The notes beneath the pieces are model-generated. The model ran no database searches. It was given only the letters and a program-made list of their open reading frames with translations, and had not been told where the DNA came from. Positions 4,120 through 35,153 of a stretch of DNA of 64,000 bases are shown one piece after another. Each line of letters opens with the position of its first letter. Within the stretch, counting starts at the first letter, position 1. Source of the stretch: Candidatus Delongbacteria bacterium (GTDB taxonomy: Bacteria; CAIWAD01); assembly GCA_041675285.1 (NCBI GenBank), contig JBAYTZ010000018.1, positions 7,586 through 71,585 of the forward strand, written 5' to 3'. The position numbers were made by a program, and so were the translations under genes.

Positions 4120-5211
4120 ATGAAGATCCTCTTCATCACGCTCAAGGCTGATAACGCCCATGTGCTCCGCTGGGTGCAGGGAGCCCTCGACGCCGGACAC
4201 CAGCCGGAACTCCTCTGCCTGATGCCCTGTCGCCCGGTACTGGACATTCCCACCACAATCATCGACACCGACTCTGGGCCCTGGGCCAAATCCATTGGCC
4301 GACTCCACTTCATCCTGGCCTGCCGCCGCGCCATCCGTCGCCTGCGGCCGGACTTGGTCCACATTCACTTCATGGACCCGACCCTGACCGTGTTGGGATG
4401 GATACAGGCTTCGCCCTTGCTGGTCTCGGTGTGGGGCAGTGACTTGGCCATGCCTCGCAGCCTGCTTAACGAAGGCTTCCGGCGGTTGGGAATCCGCGCC
4501 GCTGACTGCGTCGTGGCTACAAATCCCTTGCTGGAATACATGGCGCGCGCGCATGTAGGGTTGGACGCGCCGGTAGAGGTGATCCCCTTCGGCGTGGACA
4601 CGCGCTTGTTCACCCCTGGAGCCGATCCCCCCGACCGGCCCTTCCGCATCGGCTTCGTCAAGCATTTGGAGTGGGTATACGGTTACGATGTCCTGATTCG
4701 CGCCGTCGCCATCGCCGTGCGTCGGGTGCCTGACCTGGAGCTGCATATCGTCGGTGAGGGAAATCGCGAGGCGGAAGCAAGGCGCCTGGTTCAGGAGGCG
4801 GGGTTGGGCGAGGTGACGGTGTTCCGGGGGCGGATCCCCAACGCGCAGTTGCCGGAGCTGCTACGCTCCTATCATGCGTTCGCCATGCCCTCGCGCAGCG
4901 AAAGCTTCGGTGTAAGCGCCCTGGAGGCGTCCGCCTGTGGCGTGCCAGTGGTGGCCAGCCGGGCCGGTGGCATCCCGGATGTGGTGCGTGACGGCGAGAC
5001 GGGTTTCCTGGTGCCGCCACGGGATGCCGACGCGCTGGCCGAACGCCTGGTCTGGCTAGCGGAGCATCCGGCGGAGGCCCGCCGCATGGGCCGGTCGGGA
5101 CGGCAACTGGTGGAGAGGGAGTTCGCCTGGGACGACTGTGTGATGAAGATGGAGGCGGTCTACCGTCGGTTGACCGGGAGCGCAGCCAGCTCTCGCAAGA
5201 GACCGGCATAG
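4120..5211 (+). CDS. glycosyltransferase family 4
   Basis: C-terminal GT-B motif EGNREAE...FAMPSRSESFGVSALEASACGVPVVASRAGGIPDVV...GETGFLV. SD GGAGCG lies before the ATG at 4120. Confidence 0.75.
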   Translation: MKILFITLKADNAHVLRWVQGALDAGHQPELLCLMPCRPVLDIPTTIIDTDSGPWAKSIGRLHFILACRRAIRRLRPDLVHIHFMDPTLTVLGWIQASPLLVSVWGSDLAMPRSLLNEGFRRLGIRAADCVVATNPLLEYMARAHVGLDAPVEVIPFGVDTRLFTPGADPPDRPFRIGFVKHLEWVYGYDVLIRAVAIAVRRVPDLELHIVGEGNREAEARRLVQEAGLGEVTVFRGRIPNAQLPELLRSYHAFAMPSRSESFGVSALEASACGVPVVASRAGGIPDVVRDGETGFLVPPRDADALAERLVWLAEHPAEARRMGRSGRQLVEREFAWDDCVMKMEAVYRRLTGSAASSRKRPA

Positions 5212-6518: not shown

Positions 6519-7649
6519 ATGAGGGTAGCCATCGACGGTCGCGCCATCATGCCATTTCTGGATGGAATCGGGCGCTACTCCCACTGCCTCATTGAGCAAT
6601 TGCGCCATCTTGACAGCTGGAACGAGTACATCGTTTTCGTCACCCACCCCCAGTTCGACTTTCCCGCCGACTCAAACTTTCGCGAAGTGGTGCTGCCATA
6701 TCGCTACGTGCACGCCTACACGGTCACCCATTTCCATCGGGACTTGAACCGCGAGGGGGCTGATCTGCTTTTCGCCCCCTTCTTCCTATCCCCGCCTCTG
6801 TTCAGGGGGCCGGTGGTCCTGACCGTCCATGACCTGATTTGGGTCACCCATCCGGAGCTGCAGGGACAACGCTGGCGCTTGGGGGACATGGTGAAGCGCC
6901 AAGCCCACGCCTGGATTGTCCCCCTTTCCCTGCGCCGGGCCCGGGCCTTGCTCTCCGTCAGCCAAGCCACCACGGCGGAATTGCTGGCCTTCCTGCCGGA
7001 GGTGGCCGGACGCGTCCACACCATCCCCTTGGGCTTGGACCACGTGCCCGTCCCTGCCACCATCCTGCCGATGGAGCAGCGCTTGCCTTATCTCCTGTTC
7101 ATTGGCAATTCGAAGCCCTACAAGAACATGGCTGGCGTCATCCGCTGCTTCGACCTACTGGTGCGCGAAGCCGGATTCAGCCAGTGGCGCCTGAAAATCC
7201 CAGGTCGACGGGACAGTTTCCGCGGCAGCATTCAACGTTTGTTGGATGACTTGGACTGTCGAGACCGGGTGGACCTGCTTGGCCCCGTTTCCGAGGAGAA
7301 CCTGGCGGAGCTTTATGGACAGGCTAGTTTGCTGCTCTTCCCCTCGCGCATGGAGGGCTTCGGTTTCCCGGTGTTGGAGGCCATGCGTCACGGAACTCCG
7401 GTGGTCACAAGCAACCGCAGTTCCCTACCTGAAGTGGCGGGCGGCTGTGCGCAGTTGGTGGATCCAGACGACGTGCCGGCCATGGCGCGGGCCTGCGCGG
7501 AGCTGCTGGGCGATGTGGCGCGGCGACAGGAGCTGTCCGCGCGCGGGCTGGAGCACGCAGCCGGCTTTCGCTGGGAAAACACGGCGCGGGCGACCTTGGC
7601 CGTGCTTCGACAGGCCGCCGACGGACGGATGAGCCCAGGCCCACGGTGA
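6519..7649 (+). CDS. glycosyltransferase family 4
   Basis: LLFIGNSKPYKN...LLLFPSRMEGFGFPVLEAMRHGTPVVTSN is the GT4 EX7E region. AGGAGA SD is upstream. Confidence 0.75.
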   Translation: MRVAIDGRAIMPFLDGIGRYSHCLIEQLRHLDSWNEYIVFVTHPQFDFPADSNFREVVLPYRYVHAYTVTHFHRDLNREGADLLFAPFFLSPPLFRGPVVLTVHDLIWVTHPELQGQRWRLGDMVKRQAHAWIVPLSLRRARALLSVSQATTAELLAFLPEVAGRVHTIPLGLDHVPVPATILPMEQRLPYLLFIGNSKPYKNMAGVIRCFDLLVREAGFSQWRLKIPGRRDSFRGSIQRLLDDLDCRDRVDLLGPVSEENLAELYGQASLLLFPSRMEGFGFPVLEAMRHGTPVVTSNRSSLPEVAGGCAQLVDPDDVPAMARACAELLGDVARRQELSARGLEHAAGFRWENTARATLAVLRQAADGRMSPGPR

Positions 7650-31182: not shown

Positions 31183-32765
31183 TGCGCCGCGCACTGGGGC
31201 TGATTCTCGTTGCGGGCCTGCTCGCCCCCCTGGGCGCCGCGGATCTCAACGTCTCCGGCCTGAACACGCTGCGCTACGGCACGGGCACGGCGCTGGACGA
31301 AATCACCCTCCAGGAGACGGATCGCCGCTACTTCGAGGAGACCCTCGACCTGGACCTGAGCGGCGGGGCCTTCCGGCTCAACCTGGCCAGTCTGGCCGCC
31401 TGGCCGACGGAGTTTCCCGACTCCCCGCCCCGCACGGGCGACGCGGAAATCCGCCAGCTGGCCCTGATCCGCCGCAGCCTGGAATGGAACGGCCCCGTCA
31501 ACGTGCAGCTGGGCGACTTCTGGACCACCTTCGGCAACGGTCTGGCGCTCTCCCTCTACCGCGACGAGGCGCTGGTCAATCCGCGCCTGATCGGCAACGC
31601 GCGCGAAGAGCTGCCCGCCAGCTGGGACAACGGCGGGGACGGCGTGCTGGTGGAGGCCCTGCGCGGAGATTGGACGCTGAAAGGTCTCTGGGGAAACACG
31701 GACTACGTGGGCAAGCTGGCCGGCGGCAACGTGGAGTGGACGCGCGGCTGGGGCAGCCTGGGTGGCAGCCTGGTGCGCGCCACGGGCATCCCGCAGAACG
31801 ACGACATTCGCATCGGCGTGGCGCCCACCCTGGACCTGGTGAGCCGCGAGGCCTACGCCACGCTCCGCGTGGGACCGGCCGAGTTCTCACTCAATCACGT
31901 GGATCAGCACCAGCTGGACACGGAAGCGCGCAACGCGGGCGCCGGCGGCCTGGCCACCTACGCCACGGCCAGCGCGCCGCTGCTGGGCTGGACCGTCCTG
32001 ACGGAATACAAGTACTACCGTTTCGCGCGCCAGACCCTCTACCTCAACAGCGCGCCCACTGTGCAGCGCGAGATCCCCACCCGGCTGATCGCCCGCAGCA
32101 CGCACCGCGTGTTCGCCAACGAGGACGAGACGGGTTTGCAGGTGGACGTCTCACGCTCCTGGGAAGGCGGACACACCCTGCGCGCCAGCGCGGCCTGGGC
32201 CTCGCACATCGACGGCAACCTGTTGCCTGTCCTCGAAGAGGCCCAGAACGGCTACCAGGAGTACACGGCGGGCTGGTTGATGGAGTTCAGTCCCGAGCGG
32301 CACCTGGAGTTGGGAGTGGCCTACACCGAGGAGACCAACGGCTGGCTGCCTGACGGACAGGAGCCCCTGAGCACCGCCTCCTGGTTCCGGCGCACGGGCG
32401 TGAGCGTCGCGCTGCTGACCCCCGCGCCGCTGGTGCGTTCGCTGGAGATCGCAGCGGAGCTGCTGGGCAAGGAGGAACTCACGCTGGACGAGCGCAGCAC
32501 GGGCCTGCTGCTCTGGACCGAGCTCTTTCCCTCACCGGCCTGGTCCCTCAACCTGACGGCGGACTACGACGAGCACAGCACGTCCCGCCAGGACTGGATG
32601 GGTTCCGGCGAGCTGCGGACGGACTTCCACTTCCCGGCTGCCGTGAACCACACGCTGACCGTGTTCGCCGGCCGCTTGCGTGGCGGACAGGTTTGCAGCA
32701 ACGGCAATTGCCGGATCGTGGCGCCCTTCGACGGGGTCAAGCTCACGCTGGCCAGCAAGTTCTAG
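31182..32765 (+). CDS. putative outer-membrane beta-barrel protein
   Basis: Signal peptide, alternating amphipathic segments, and a C-terminal ...LTLASKF ending in Phe (OMP signature). ATG overlaps the previous stop. Confidence 0.4.
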   Translation: MRRALGLILVAGLLAPLGAADLNVSGLNTLRYGTGTALDEITLQETDRRYFEETLDLDLSGGAFRLNLASLAAWPTEFPDSPPRTGDAEIRQLALIRRSLEWNGPVNVQLGDFWTTFGNGLALSLYRDEALVNPRLIGNAREELPASWDNGGDGVLVEALRGDWTLKGLWGNTDYVGKLAGGNVEWTRGWGSLGGSLVRATGIPQNDDIRIGVAPTLDLVSREAYATLRVGPAEFSLNHVDQHQLDTEARNAGAGGLATYATASAPLLGWTVLTEYKYYRFARQTLYLNSAPTVQREIPTRLIARSTHRVFANEDETGLQVDVSRSWEGGHTLRASAAWASHIDGNLLPVLEEAQNGYQEYTAGWLMEFSPERHLELGVAYTEETNGWLPDGQEPLSTASWFRRTGVSVALLTPAPLVRSLEIAAELLGKEELTLDERSTGLLLWTELFPSPAWSLNLTADYDEHSTSRQDWMGSGELRTDFHFPAAVNHTLTVFAGRLRGGQVCSNGNCRIVAPFDGVKLTLASKF

Positions 32766-32793
32766 GGGGCCCGGCGGCCAGACCCGGGATGAC

Positions 32794-34272
32794 ATGGTGA
32801 ACCCACAGCACACGACACCGGACGGCGGGGCGGACACCCGCCGTCTGCTCTCCGGCCTGCCGGCAGTGGACCGCCTGCTGCGCGAGCCGGCGCTGCAGGC
32901 CTGGGAGGACCGCCTGCGCCGCGAGACGCTGGCGATCCTGGCCCGCGAGGAACTGGAGACCTGGCGCGCGGAGCTGCTGGCCGGGACCCGCGGCCAGGCG
33001 GGCTCTGCGGCCGAACTGGCGGCCGGGGCGGCCCGGCGGGCGGCGCGCCTGCTGGACGGCCGCATGCGGCGCGTGATCAACGCCAGCGGCGTGGTGCTGC
33101 ACACGGGCCTGGGGCGCGCCGTGCTGCCGCAGGCGGCCCGCGCGCGCGTGCAGGAGATCCTGACCGGCGCGGTGGACCTGGAGTTCCAGCTGGAGGACGG
33201 CAAGCGCGGCCGGCGCGAGGAGCGGGTGGCCCGGCTGCTGCGCCTGCTCACCGGGGCGGAGGCCGCCCTGGCCGTGAACAACAACGCCGCGGCCGTGCAC
33301 CTGATGCTGCGCGCCCTCTGCGCCCGGCGCGAGGTGATCGTCTCCCGCGGGCAGCAGGTGGAGATCGGCGGCGGCTTCCGCATTCCCGAGGTGATCCGCC
33401 AGAGCGGCGCGCGGCTGGTGGAGGTGGGCTGCACCAACCGCACGCACTGCGAGGACTACGCCCAGGTCATCGGGCCGCGCACGGCGGCCCTCTTGCGCGT
33501 GCATCCCAGCAACTTCCGGGTGAGCGGCTTCACGGCCGAGCCCACGCTGGAGGAGCTGGCGCAACTGGCCCACGCCCGGGGCCTGCTCTTGCTGGACGAC
33601 CTAGGATCCGGCGCCCTGGTGGACTTTCCCGGCGTGCCGGAGCCGGAGCCGCTGGTGACCGCCTCCCTGGCCGCGGGGGCGGATCTGGTCTGCTTCAGCG
33701 GCGACAAGCTGCTGGGCGGGCCCCAGGCGGGCCTGCTGCTGGGGCGCGCGGAGCTGATCCGCAAACTGGCCGCGCATCCCATGATGCGGGCCTTCCGCTG
33801 CGACAAACTGACGCTGGCGGCGCTGGAGGCCGTGCTGGAACTCTATCTGGCCCCCGGCGGCGAGCGGCCAGCCGACCTGCCGGTCTGGGCCGCCTGCAAC
33901 GAGGGGCGGGACGCCGTGCGCCGGCGGGCGGGCGGGCTGTTCGAAGCCCTGCTGCGCGAACTGGGCGCCCCCGCGGTGGCGGCCGGCTGGGAGCGTGCGG
34001 CCGAGGCGGCGGGGCTGGAATTGAGGGAATCAGACAGCACCGGACGGACGGGATCCGGCGCGCTGCCCGGCCAGGATCTGCCCAGCGCGGCCGTGGCCCT
34101 GCGGCCCCTCCGGGGCGGCGCCCACCGCCTGCACGACCGTCTGCGCCGCGGCACGCCCGCCGTGGTGGGCCAGGTCCGGGCGCAGGAACTGCTGCTGGAT
34201 GTCAAGGCCGTGGCCGAGGAGGAGATCCCCGAGCTGGCTGCCGCCGTGCGCCGGGCGCTGGGATTGATATGA
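32794..34272 (+). CDS. selA: L-seryl-tRNA(Sec) selenium transferase SelA
   Basis: VINASGVVLHTGLGRA and FSGDKLLGGPQAG (PLP-lysine) are SelA signatures. About 492 aa. Confidence 0.85.
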   Translation: MVNPQHTTPDGGADTRRLLSGLPAVDRLLREPALQAWEDRLRRETLAILAREELETWRAELLAGTRGQAGSAAELAAGAARRAARLLDGRMRRVINASGVVLHTGLGRAVLPQAARARVQEILTGAVDLEFQLEDGKRGRREERVARLLRLLTGAEAALAVNNNAAAVHLMLRALCARREVIVSRGQQVEIGGGFRIPEVIRQSGARLVEVGCTNRTHCEDYAQVIGPRTAALLRVHPSNFRVSGFTAEPTLEELAQLAHARGLLLLDDLGSGALVDFPGVPEPEPLVTASLAAGADLVCFSGDKLLGGPQAGLLLGRAELIRKLAAHPMMRAFRCDKLTLAALEAVLELYLAPGGERPADLPVWAACNEGRDAVRRRAGGLFEALLRELGAPAVAAGWERAAEAAGLELRESDSTGRTGSGALPGQDLPSAAVALRPLRGGAHRLHDRLRRGTPAVVGQVRAQELLLDVKAVAEEEIPELAAAVRRALGLI

Positions 34273-34548
34273 ATCACCACAGAGACACAGAGTTTTTATT
34301 GGACTCAGCCTGGGTTGTGAGCTGGATCGACCGAGAGTCCATTTGAACACGAAGTCACGAAGTCTCGAAGATGATTTGTGTCACATGAGGGGAGGGCCGC
34401 TTGTGGCTCATTACCACTGAGGCACACAGGCACAGAGTTCTAGCTGGGCTGCCAGAGGCGCTTGACCTTAGGTTTCTTCCCCCCCATCCCATCCCTTCCC
34501 CACTTCGCAGGGGAAGGGGTCGCACAGGCAAAGGTGTCAGGGATGCTT

Positions 34549-35014
34549 GAGGTGAAGCCCGCAGGGCTGAACCAGAACCAGGTGGTGACGCCGTCAGGCG
34601 GAACCAACTACATGGACACAGGAAGTCCAACCGCCGGCCAGCGGAAGGCCACCGCGAGGTGGCCTGACTCTGGCCGCTGAGAAAGAGCGCTTCTTTGGCT
34701 CCACCTTTCTGGCGCCAGCAGAAAGGTGGAAATCAAGGCAACCCGGCAGTTTCCAGGATGCAAGTGAGGTGATGGGATCCCCCGGTCAAGCCGGGGGATG
34801 ACGAGTTGGATGAGTGAGGTGAAGCCCGGAAGGGCTGAACCAGAAAATGGGTGAAGCGCGAAGCGCGAACCAACTACCTGGAGACAGGAAGGAGCCGCTG
34901 CCGCCAGCGGAAGCCCGCCGGGAGGCGGGCTGACTCTGGCGGGTGAGAAAAAGCGCCTCTTTGGCTCCACCTTTCTGGCGCAAGCAGAAAGGTGGAAATC
35001 AAGGCACCCGGCAG
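34549..35014. repeat. two tandem ~200-nt copies (34549-34749, 34816-35014) of a hairpin-rich element; candidate structured ncRNA pair
   Basis: A conserved P1(6 bp) / internal loop GCGGAA...UGACUC / P2(7 bp, GNRA loop) module shows compensatory changes between copies (cggcca-tggccg vs ccgcca-tggcgg; ggccacc-ggtggcc vs gcccgcc-ggcgggc). Each copy also has an identical 10-bp hairpin ccacctttct...agaaaggtgg. Flanked by the palindromes 34493-34519 and 35046-35067. Confidence 0.6.
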
Positions 35015-35153
35015 GTGACAGGGATGCGGTGAACCCCCATCCCGACCTTCCCCCTGCAGGGGGAAGGGGAGCCTGAGCGAAGGTCAAAACGACCGCTGAA
35101 AAGTGCGGAATGAAAAGAGGCGCTGCGCTGCGCCTCCCAGCGCGAGGATTCTG

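Follow-up and report, generated by a model that had tools for sequence, protein, structure and literature searches.

The 881-nt spacer between selA and djlA-selB in the stretch of Candidatus Delongbacteria DNA analysed here (contig JBAYTZ010000018.1; hereafter the window, 64,000 nt, which is also ENA contig ERZ27247358:k141_190027) is a mosaic repeat island made up of two full repeat bodies, copies A and B, together with one dead stub and a number of accessory modules. The bodies belong to a family with roughly 50 or more copies per genome. It is confined to one lineage of Candidatus Delongbacteria-like bacteria, apart from a single distant homologue in the genome of another member of the Delongbacteria. 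The first-pass annotation had described the two copies as a tandem pair in the spacer; they are not a local pair tied to the sel genes, as the repeat is dispersed and occurs at unrelated loci. The best explanation, which we consider probably correct, is a co-transcribed RNA element, i.e., an interspersed modular repeat, loosely BOX/BIME/ERIC-like, that is carried on host operon transcripts. Directly observed are the family itself, its insertion here, conservation of the fold, the swapping of hairpin alleles and the bias in orientation. Taken together, this is a new and well-supported repeat family of a broadly known kind, absent from Rfam and coming from an uncultivated phylum.

The spacer lies between the SelA gene (32680-34272, stop codon 34270-34272) and a DjlA-like gene with TerB and DnaJ domains (35145/35154-35930), which is followed by SelB. 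It had been described as non-coding and low in GC, which agrees with a GC content of 0.56-0.65 compared with 0.70-0.79 in the adjoining genes. The closest named relatives of the window DjlA are Candidatus Delongbacteria.

A dispersed repeat family

One genome per species was scanned with the loop-string pattern CCAGCGGAAG-N14-22-CTGACTCTGG. The scan returned full-length homologues on 8 contigs of one metagenome-assembled genome (MAG; DYSB01, labelled 'Acetofilamentum sp.') and one diverged copy, L019, in Candidatus Delongbacteria chromosome OY760505.1, and the same pattern in metagenome contigs gave at least 36 exact matches on 19 long contigs (~3.2 Mb) from one sample, Ga0172380. A covariance-model search had been proposed in the first-pass annotation. 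The model used here, R1, was built from 38 copies and has 192 positions and 41 pairs; in the DNA searched, 56 copies score above 44 bits with it, and copies A and B are the only two within the window. The distant copy L019 scores 44.7 bits (E ~1e-12).

The MAG DYSB01 holds at least 8 copies, all at sites orthologous to Ga0172380 copies, with flanks that are 90-97% identical. Because every MAG copy is orthologous to a copy in the second genome, the sites of the family are old and stable. A phage, plasmid or viral origin was rejected, since blastn against plasmid and phage collections and a search of viral contigs with two core patterns both gave no matches.

Many contigs of both assemblies start or end inside a body (L031, L033, L036, L039, L046, L051, L065, L004 and L011). 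The repeat breaks short-read assemblies, and copy numbers taken from such assemblies are therefore underestimates.

Conserved fold and covariation

The two direct repeats reported for the spacer were confirmed: 34637-34761 and 34903-35027 are 85% identical, the in-register blocks extend from 34541/34808, and the copies are spaced ~266 nt apart. Mean column identity in the pairwise alignment of copies A and B is likewise 85%. With the 3′ hairpin included, a body measures ~215 nt. The bodies and their helices are located as follows.

34549-34739, plus strand: body copy A, 191 nt (R1 228.4 bits, E ~1e-64)
Body A helices, 5′ part: H1 34551-34573; H2 34584-34605; P1 34635-34640/34671-34676
Body A helices, 3′ part: P2 34647-34653/34658-34664 with loop GCGA; terminal 12-bp hairpin 34700-34711/34719-34730
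34816-35005, plus strand: body copy B, 190 nt (R1 209.8 bits, E ~5e-59)
Body B helices, 5′ part: H1 34818-34841; H2 34850-34871; P1 34901-34906/34937-34942
Body B helices, 3′ part: P2 with loop GGGA inside 34904-34939; terminal hairpin 34966-34977/34985-34996

The core stems are as the first-pass annotation had them. P1 is CGGCCA:TGGCCG in copy A and CCGCCA:TGGCGG in copy B, with pairing kept; P2 is GGCCACC-GCGA-GGTGGCC in copy A and GCCCGCC-GGGA-GGCGGGC in copy B; and the internal loops GCGGAAG and CTGACTC are the same in both. The identical hairpin listed at 10 bp is present in both copies too, but its stem is 12 bp long (TCCACCTTTCTG-7 nt-CAGAAAGGTGGA, 34700-34730 and 34966-34996). Each copy has two more hairpins that were absent from that list and that also differ in a compensatory way, namely H1 (AGCCC..GGGCT) and H2 (CGCC-GTCA-GGCG in copy A, GCGC-GAA-GCGC in copy B).

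Measured against dinucleotide shuffles, the plus strand of body A folds with z = -4.84 and that of body B with z = -5.25, and in each case 0 of 200 shuffles fold as well. Across the 56 copies in the model-based alignment, 96.5% of pair cells are paired compared with 87.6% in shuffles, 20 of the 41 pairs show double-sided changes (a count reached by 0 of 500 shuffles, with slid partners giving at most 4), and the covariation score is 0.199 compared with 0.064, all of which applies to copies that are paralogues exchanging segments and to an alignment fitted to R1. Covariation thus supports the helices beyond the shuffle controls, as in a structured functional RNA. Random substitutions, which the first-pass annotation had named as the mark of a decaying MITE (a miniature transposable element with inverted repeats), were not seen in the further copies.

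The number of stem variants differs between helices: three for H1, at least ten for H2 (nearly all of them Watson-Crick), three for P1, two main alleles for P2 and three forms of the terminal hairpin. In L019 the H1 and P2 stems are entirely different and there is no H2, while the architecture of P1/loop/P2 plus terminal hairpin is kept. What does not vary is a set of tandem G·A motifs, 5′-UGAA/UGAA-3′ in H1 and again in H2, and GGAA/UGAC in the internal loop between P1 and P2. The single-stranded stretches CAGGAAG and GCGGAAG are also invariant among copies, and the P2 loop is a GNRA loop (GCGA, GGGA or GUGA) in all window-lineage copies and AGU in L019. On the opposite strand the G·A motifs and GNRA loops would be C·U mismatches and non-GNRA loops, and a process acting only on DNA and perfecting palindromes would have erased them; this speaks for selection acting on the plus strand while it is single-stranded.

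Two further pairings were considered for the model. A third hairpin in copy B, H3 (CCUG-GAGA-CAGG), was left out since it is not conserved across copies, and a long-range GGUG/CGCC pairing proposed by RNAalifold showed no covariation, its place being taken by H2.

Exchange of hairpin alleles

Orthologous bodies differ by swaps of whole hairpin alleles between flanks that are 90-97% identical. Between orthologues, 16 of 24 changed pairs are changed on both sides; for independent mutation at ~8% divergence, our own rough estimate is only ~1-2 such pairs. A few hairpin alleles recur in mosaic combinations across the family, so the differences between copies A and B are those between two alleles of each hairpin that circulate in the family, with gene conversion or template switching as the probable route of exchange. 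The first-pass annotation had taken the covariation between A and B as the signature of a functional RNA. This holds in so far as pairing is kept by double-sided changes across the 56 copies, but the A/B differences themselves are recurring hairpin alleles and not independent compensatory mutations. The pairing signal is real, but the independent events behind it are far fewer than the cells counted. More generally, pair-preserving differences between two neighbouring copies may stem from allele exchange and are by themselves no proof of independent compensation.

The exchange is not confined to hairpins. Downstream of rpsA, the orthologues L001:2049-2198 and L045:3850-3999 carry a type-2 5′ module and a type-1 leader respectively, so whole modules have been replaced at a fixed site.

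Some bodies carry an optional insert of 13-14 nt, (G/A)CCT(G/A)ACCGGCCGT, which occurs inside bodies only. Its position is one of three fixed ones: within the H2 loop, following P1 (there in reverse orientation) or ahead of the terminal hairpin. Its loci are L021:7683 and 7772, L039:4608 and 4648, L014:2871, L018:3360, L049:2768, L053:5410, L060:9383, and L064:9702 and 12032. L021 and L039 each have two inserts, which are complementary to one another and could thereby form an additional long-range helix. The insert may stem from a footprint or from template switching.

Insertion into the selA-djlA junction

The selA-djlA-selB synteny is kept in relatives, where the distance between selA and djlA ranges as follows.

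2 nt: L073, L074 and L075 (DjlA identity 71% and 62%)
7 nt: L079 and L080 (DjlA identity 64%)
84 nt: L078 (DjlA identity 75%)
117 nt: L072 (DjlA identity 84%)
372 nt, with one leader and one body: L014, from a 93%-identical MAG
675 nt: P0003 (DjlA identity 76%)
881 nt, with two bodies: the window and L076

Model R1 finds no body in the relatives with gaps of 2-117 nt, and 72 kb from five relatives (DjlA identity 62-84%) contains neither a body nor the accessory modules. The spacer element is an insertion into a selA-djlA junction that was once tightly coupled. As these relatives with the same synteny lack it, the element arrived after the split from the 84% relative and cannot be an ancestral sel regulator. 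Comparison of filled sites (the window, L014) with empty ones (L072, L073) reveals no obvious target-site duplication, although the junction DNA is too diverged to be sure. Since the insertion splits a junction that is just 2 nt wide in relatives, it is naturally suited to studying how operons tolerate elements of this sort.

Anatomy of the repeat island

Every module of the spacer recurs elsewhere in this genome in other combinations. The 5′ half runs CACAGAG repeat, type-1 leader, 13-nt stub, partial CACAGAG plus leader, palindrome f; the 3′ half runs body A, H6, hairpin e, body B, H6, palindrome f and the resident djlA 5′ untranslated region (UTR). The features outside the bodies are the following.

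34275-34295, plus strand: module a (CACCACAGAGACACAGAG), a CACAGAG(G/A) repeat with a period of 8 nt, with which the island begins just 3′ of the selA stop codon
34296-34386, plus strand: type-1 leader module (...GAGAGTCCATTTGAACACGAAGTCACGAAGTCTCGAAGATGATTTGTGTCAC), with a tandem 8-nt CACGAAGT at 34348-34370
34387-34399, plus strand: degenerate, truncated start of a third body (GAGGGGAGGGCCG compared with consensus GAGGTGAAGGCCG), in register after the leader
34423-34450, plus strand: second partial module a plus leader start (CACACAGGCACAGAGTTCTAGCTGGGCT); direct-repeat family D3, 34278-34305 and 34423-34450 being 75% identical
34480-34529, no strand assigned: module f (CCCCCCATCCCATCCCTTCCCC-ACTTCGCA-GGGGAAGGGGTCGC), a G/C palindrome
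34740-34760, plus strand: H6-A, a degenerate 5-bp hairpin CCCGG-CAGTTT-CCAGG
34773-34803, no strand assigned: module e, hairpin GGGATCCCCCGGTCAAGCCGGGGGATGACG
35006-35026, plus strand: H6-B, hairpin CCCGG-CAGGTGA-CAGGG
35030-35073, no strand assigned: module f again (GAACCCCCATCCCGACCTTCCCCCTGCAGGGGGAAGGGGAGCC), the common 3′ tail of many copies
35074-35153, plus strand: resident djlA 5′ untranslated stretch, with hairpin GAGGCGC..GCGCCTC and ribosome-binding site GAGGA

The G/C palindromes at 34493-34519 and 35046-35067 and the 9-bp hairpin at 34777-34799 had been read as brackets around the array. They are present and correspond to the two copies of module f and to module e, but they are separate repeat modules that are found beside many other copies. 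Specifically, module f and its linker also lie 5′ of bodies in L042, L049 and L035, while module e occurs 18 times in the Ga0172380 loci and once in the window and lies 5′ of bodies in L031, L070, L064, L039 and L036. The motif of module a is found upstream of many other copies (with 38 occurrences in the Ga0172380 loci, 13 in those of the MAG and 0 in the 72 kb of relatives). The type-1 leader aligns with the leaders of L014, L011, L015 and L021 at a mean identity of 74%; it accompanies ~17 of 52 bodies, abutting the body directly in the other loci, and the remaining bodies have a different 5′ module. In most copies H6 is CCCGG-N6-7-CCGGG directly 3′ of the body, as judged from the downstream flanks of 50 copies. 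Overall, bodies combine with at least four kinds of 5′ module and at least three kinds of 3′ module, and L042, L049, L028 and L038 likewise contain two bodies in direct tandem. The djlA 5′ UTR is shared with the orthologue L014 from ~35109 on and with the element-free L072 over its last ~20 nt.

The covariance model finds no full body at 34387-34399. A third-body stub at this position and a second CACAGAG/leader start at 34423-34450, both within one site, suggest repeated rearrangement or nested insertion. A repeat search found no terminal inverted repeats at the ends of the body (GAGGTGAAG...CAAGG) or of the larger island, only internal hairpins.

Neighbouring genes and orientation

The first-pass annotation had raised the possibility that copies elsewhere also flank sel genes. 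Their neighbours turned out to be unrelated housekeeping genes: rpsA, MiaB/RimO-like, transaldolase, HtrA, PanC, Dxr, PmbA/TldD, histidine kinase, FliM, MotA and carbamoyl-phosphate synthase genes lie beside copies, and the downstream genes, which include miaB-like, htrA, panC, dxr, pmbA, djlA, histidine kinase and fliM genes, share no common pathway. A riboswitch or pathway-specific cis-regulator was rejected on the ground that the neighbours have no functional relation.

The element is biased in orientation: the upstream gene is on the strand of the element in a ratio of 35:12 and the downstream gene in a ratio of 31:12, from crude GC3-based gene calls. The spacer contains neither a sigma-70-type promoter nor a plus-strand intrinsic terminator. 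The sole terminator-like site of the region is H6-B with the following CCTTGATTTC, read on the minus strand.

This minus-strand arrangement, H6 followed by CCUUG(A/U)UUUC, is found at 35006-35026 and in the same place in most copies. It would stop antisense transcription entering the body, which could explain the bias toward sense orientation.

No transposase, Y1 transposase, RAYT, TnpB or reverse transcriptase was found among 25 proteins scanned (5 in the window and 20 beside copies elsewhere), which apart from one recombinase are all housekeeping proteins. The sole recombinase near any copy is a XerC/XerD-like tyrosine recombinase (Phage_integrase plus N-terminal SAM-like domain) at L039:3441-4415 on the plus strand, convergent with the copy at 4572-4810 on the minus strand, which at 87.7 bits is the most diverged copy in this genome. 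The gene is probably a housekeeping Xer gene.

Interpretation of the element

As a co-transcribed RNA element, the repeat would ride passively in sense orientation on the operon transcript, with selA-[element x2]-djlA-selB being read through; the absence of a plus-strand promoter or terminator from the spacer is compatible with such read-through. The plus strand is predicted to fold into H1, H2, P1/P2, the terminal hairpin and H6, with the three invariant tandem G·A motifs and the GNRA loop as a probable protein-recognition surface. Foldability would be kept by selection on the fold together with frequent hairpin-sized exchange among copies, through gene conversion or template switching. Any effect on the sel genes would be generic at most and of the kind proposed for BIME, ERIC, Correia and BOX, acting on mRNA processing or stability or uncoupling translation. 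We infer that the element is transcribed, that it acts as RNA, as the first-pass annotation had assumed of the fold, and how it spreads. In favour of RNA are the bias toward sense orientation, the plus-strand-specific motifs and the absence of a plus-strand terminator; in favour of single-stranded DNA are the strict Watson-Crick pairing and the d(GCGAAGC)-type loop of one H2 allele.

Several points weigh against the RNA reading. The minus strand also folds well (z = -3.4 for copy A and -4.9 for copy B). Folds that are selected as RNA usually show an excess of wobble pairs, and here 98% of pairing is strictly Watson-Crick, G·U/U·G accounting for 8 cells and A·C/C·A for 10 among ~1,990; six of the ten A·C cells are one shared variant, in the outermost P1 pair, and as an indicator of strand the counts of 8 and 10 are uninformative. 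The orientation bias comes from crude gene calls in which orthologous duplicates are counted, no partner protein has been identified, and as to the mode of spread there are no terminal inverted repeats and no recognisable target-site duplication.

It is unlikely, in our judgement, that the bodies constitute a multigene family of trans-acting small RNAs (sRNAs), in which each body would be an sRNA gene of ~190-215 nt with its promoter in the leader (...ATTTGTGTCAC, 2-3 nt upstream) and, for example, a role as a protein sponge through its repeated GGA and tandem G·A motifs. About one third of the bodies are indeed directly preceded by the conserved type-1 leader at a fixed 2-3 nt, the 5′ boundary of the body, GAGGTGAAG, is sharp and conserved, and the single-stranded CAGGAAG and GCGGAAG stretches are invariant. 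The organism is also flagellated (FliM, MotA), and a CsrA-type partner is conceivable in a flagellated organism. However, most bodies have a type-2 module, hairpin e, palindrome f or unique sequence on their 5′ side, and the orthologues L001 and L045 differ there. Besides the lack of a sigma-70-like promoter and of a plus-strand terminator, the terminal hairpin is followed by AAAACAAGG and not by a U-run, whereas the genome does have canonical T-run terminators (in the upstream flanks of L001, L029 and L041). The Rfam match to RsmY is noise (11.4 bits, E = 5). An apparent conservation of the leader in L019 was withdrawn: the likeness seen by eye is not significant, local alignment of the L019 upstream sequence with the leader being no better than with shuffles. 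The window also matches ATTTGTGTCAC at 6836 and 54235, in both cases by chance and within coding sequence.

The strict pairing would fit an element working at the DNA level, whose hairpins are read as single-stranded DNA by a HUH/Y1 transposase acting in trans (REP/RAYT-like or IS200/IS605-PATE-like) or by another recombinase, the fold being kept for mobility instead of RNA function. We think this improbable. The lack of a wobble excess counts for it, as does the H2 allele GCGAAGC, which matches d(GCGAAGC), a very stable DNA mini-hairpin; so do the tandem arrays, the change of copy number at one site (1 or 2), the assembly breaks that fall at copies and the orientation bias, which is known for transposons that move as single-stranded DNA. 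Yet no transposase lies beside any of the 56 copies, where there is only the XerC/D-like gene near a diverged copy, an absence that is weak evidence as it covers ~0.5 Mb of genome. Moreover, 8 of 8 MAG copies are at orthologous sites, implying little recent movement, the orientation of the element bears no relation to local GC skew (26:18), and a unit of 190 nt with 5-6 different hairpins is unlike REPs of 20-40 nt or REPIN doublets.

A bolder proposal, which we hold to be distinctly improbable, is that the body represents a hitherto undescribed class of module, either a structured RNA or single-stranded DNA, that binds protein and has some 50 or more co-oriented copies per genome in Delongbacteria-like bacteria, with a dedicated trans factor that would read the three invariant tandem G·A hairpins and drive the cassette-like exchange of stems. 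If this were true, hairpin modules would be actively rewritten at fixed chromosomal sites, the repeats would not be passive junk, and the complementary 13-14-nt optional inserts would belong to the same rewriting process.

It is very unlikely that the bodies are remnants of a transposon guide RNA (a TnpB/IscB omega-RNA or the Rfam family Transposase-2) left after loss of the protein gene. The multi-hairpin scaffold has the size of a guide RNA, and copy B matches RF03015 Transposase-2 below threshold (20.5 bits compared with a gathering threshold of 42.7, E = 0.17), but the match is tied to one H2 allele and is absent for copy A, L045 and L019, no TnpB, IscB or insertion sequence (IS) gene adjoins any copy, and phage and plasmid collections and viral contigs gave no matches. 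We regard this origin as largely refuted.

A regulatory RNA specific to sel, be it a divergent tRNA-Sec or a SECIS-like element of the selA/selB operon, is extremely unlikely and is refuted by the distribution of the copies: in its favour are the position next to selA on one side and djlA-selB on the other and the fact that the window has no selC, but the other 54 copies are found at loci unrelated to sel, the element is missing from relatives that have the same operon, and no Rfam family matches. The first-pass annotation had already seen no tRNA-Sec cloverleaf in the spacer, in agreement with ARAGORN, which finds no tRNA-Sec (selC), other tRNA or tmRNA in the 64-kb window around selA and selB; selC must therefore lie elsewhere. 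For annotation this removes a tempting false lead, as the spacer copies are not a selenocysteine-linked riboregulator.

Comparison with known systems

Rfam 15 covariance models, a comparison that the first-pass annotation had suggested, give no match at gathering thresholds in the whole window, and permissive Rfam scans of the spacer, L019 and L045 give matches at noise level only. The RF03015 family resembles this element in its short conserved string at the 5′ end, GAAGCGCGAAC, and in the GC-rich, GNRA-capped hairpin that comes after it; we attribute the likeness to chance, given that the score is well below the gathering threshold and concerns one allele of one copy only.

The pneumococcal repeats BOX (boxA-boxB(n)-boxC), RUP and SPRITE were concluded to be parasitic repeats that are likely to affect co-transcribed genes (PMC3049150, Croucher et al. 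2011). Like the present element they consist of modular sub-elements in variable combinations, are intergenic and measure from ~200 to a few hundred nt or below; they are also predicted to be heavily folded if transcribed, restricted to a lineage and its nearest relatives, located in transcribed regions and slow to transpose. In contrast, the terminal inverted repeats and target-site duplications of BOX and RUP are not seen here, and there is no sequence similarity. The body described here also differs from BOX and RUP in being a single unit of 190 nt that combines 5-6 distinct hairpins with tandem G·A motifs that do not vary and with swapped hairpin alleles.

With the enterobacterial REP/BIME and REPIN-RAYT (PMC3116915, PMC3337134, PMC3184786) the element shares the organisation as mosaics of short palindromic modules in intergenic positions or between cistrons, the vertical persistence at conserved sites and, presumably, effects on mRNA stability or attenuation without a specific pathway. 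REPs are single palindromes of 20-40 nt, and in REPINs a single-copy RAYT mobilises inverted doublets (PMC3116915, PMC3337134, PMC3184786), whereas the present unit has 190-215 nt and 5-6 different hairpins, is not an inverted doublet and mostly forms direct tandems (in the window, L042, L049, L028 and L038). The element also resembles ERIC/IRU and the neisserial Correia elements, which PMC3049150 describes as structured repeats of 100-150 nt that are co-transcribed with neighbouring genes, whose folded RNA is cut by RNase E or RNase III and whose effects depend on orientation; they are, however, long imperfect palindromes with terminal inverted repeats, while this element consists of independent hairpins joined by conserved single-stranded linkers.

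In terms of class, the element is small, non-coding and multi-copy like a MITE but lacks terminal inverted repeats, and no autonomous IS relative was found in ~0.5 Mb of loci or in the phage, plasmid and viral collections. It does have the dispersed modular copies and the lineage restriction of modular small interspersed repeats, a loose category of BOX/BIME-like elements. What makes the family unusually clean is the combination of a multi-hairpin fold kept over dozens of copies, the G·A motifs and the whole-hairpin swaps at orthologous sites.

Other sequence features

A TTG-initiated frame of 159 codons on the minus strand (34608-35087) spans both bodies and could be annotated by automatic gene callers. 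Its location in repeat DNA and the lack of any such conservation in other copies make it almost certainly spurious.

Some bodies are followed on their 3′ side by an 11-mer, GGTGCCAGG(C/T)C, repeated in long tandem arrays (L031 after 138, L040 after 128 and L053 after 7989), and a related short array, GTGCCAGGTAC in three copies, fills the selA-djlA gap of the body-less relative L078 (500-535).

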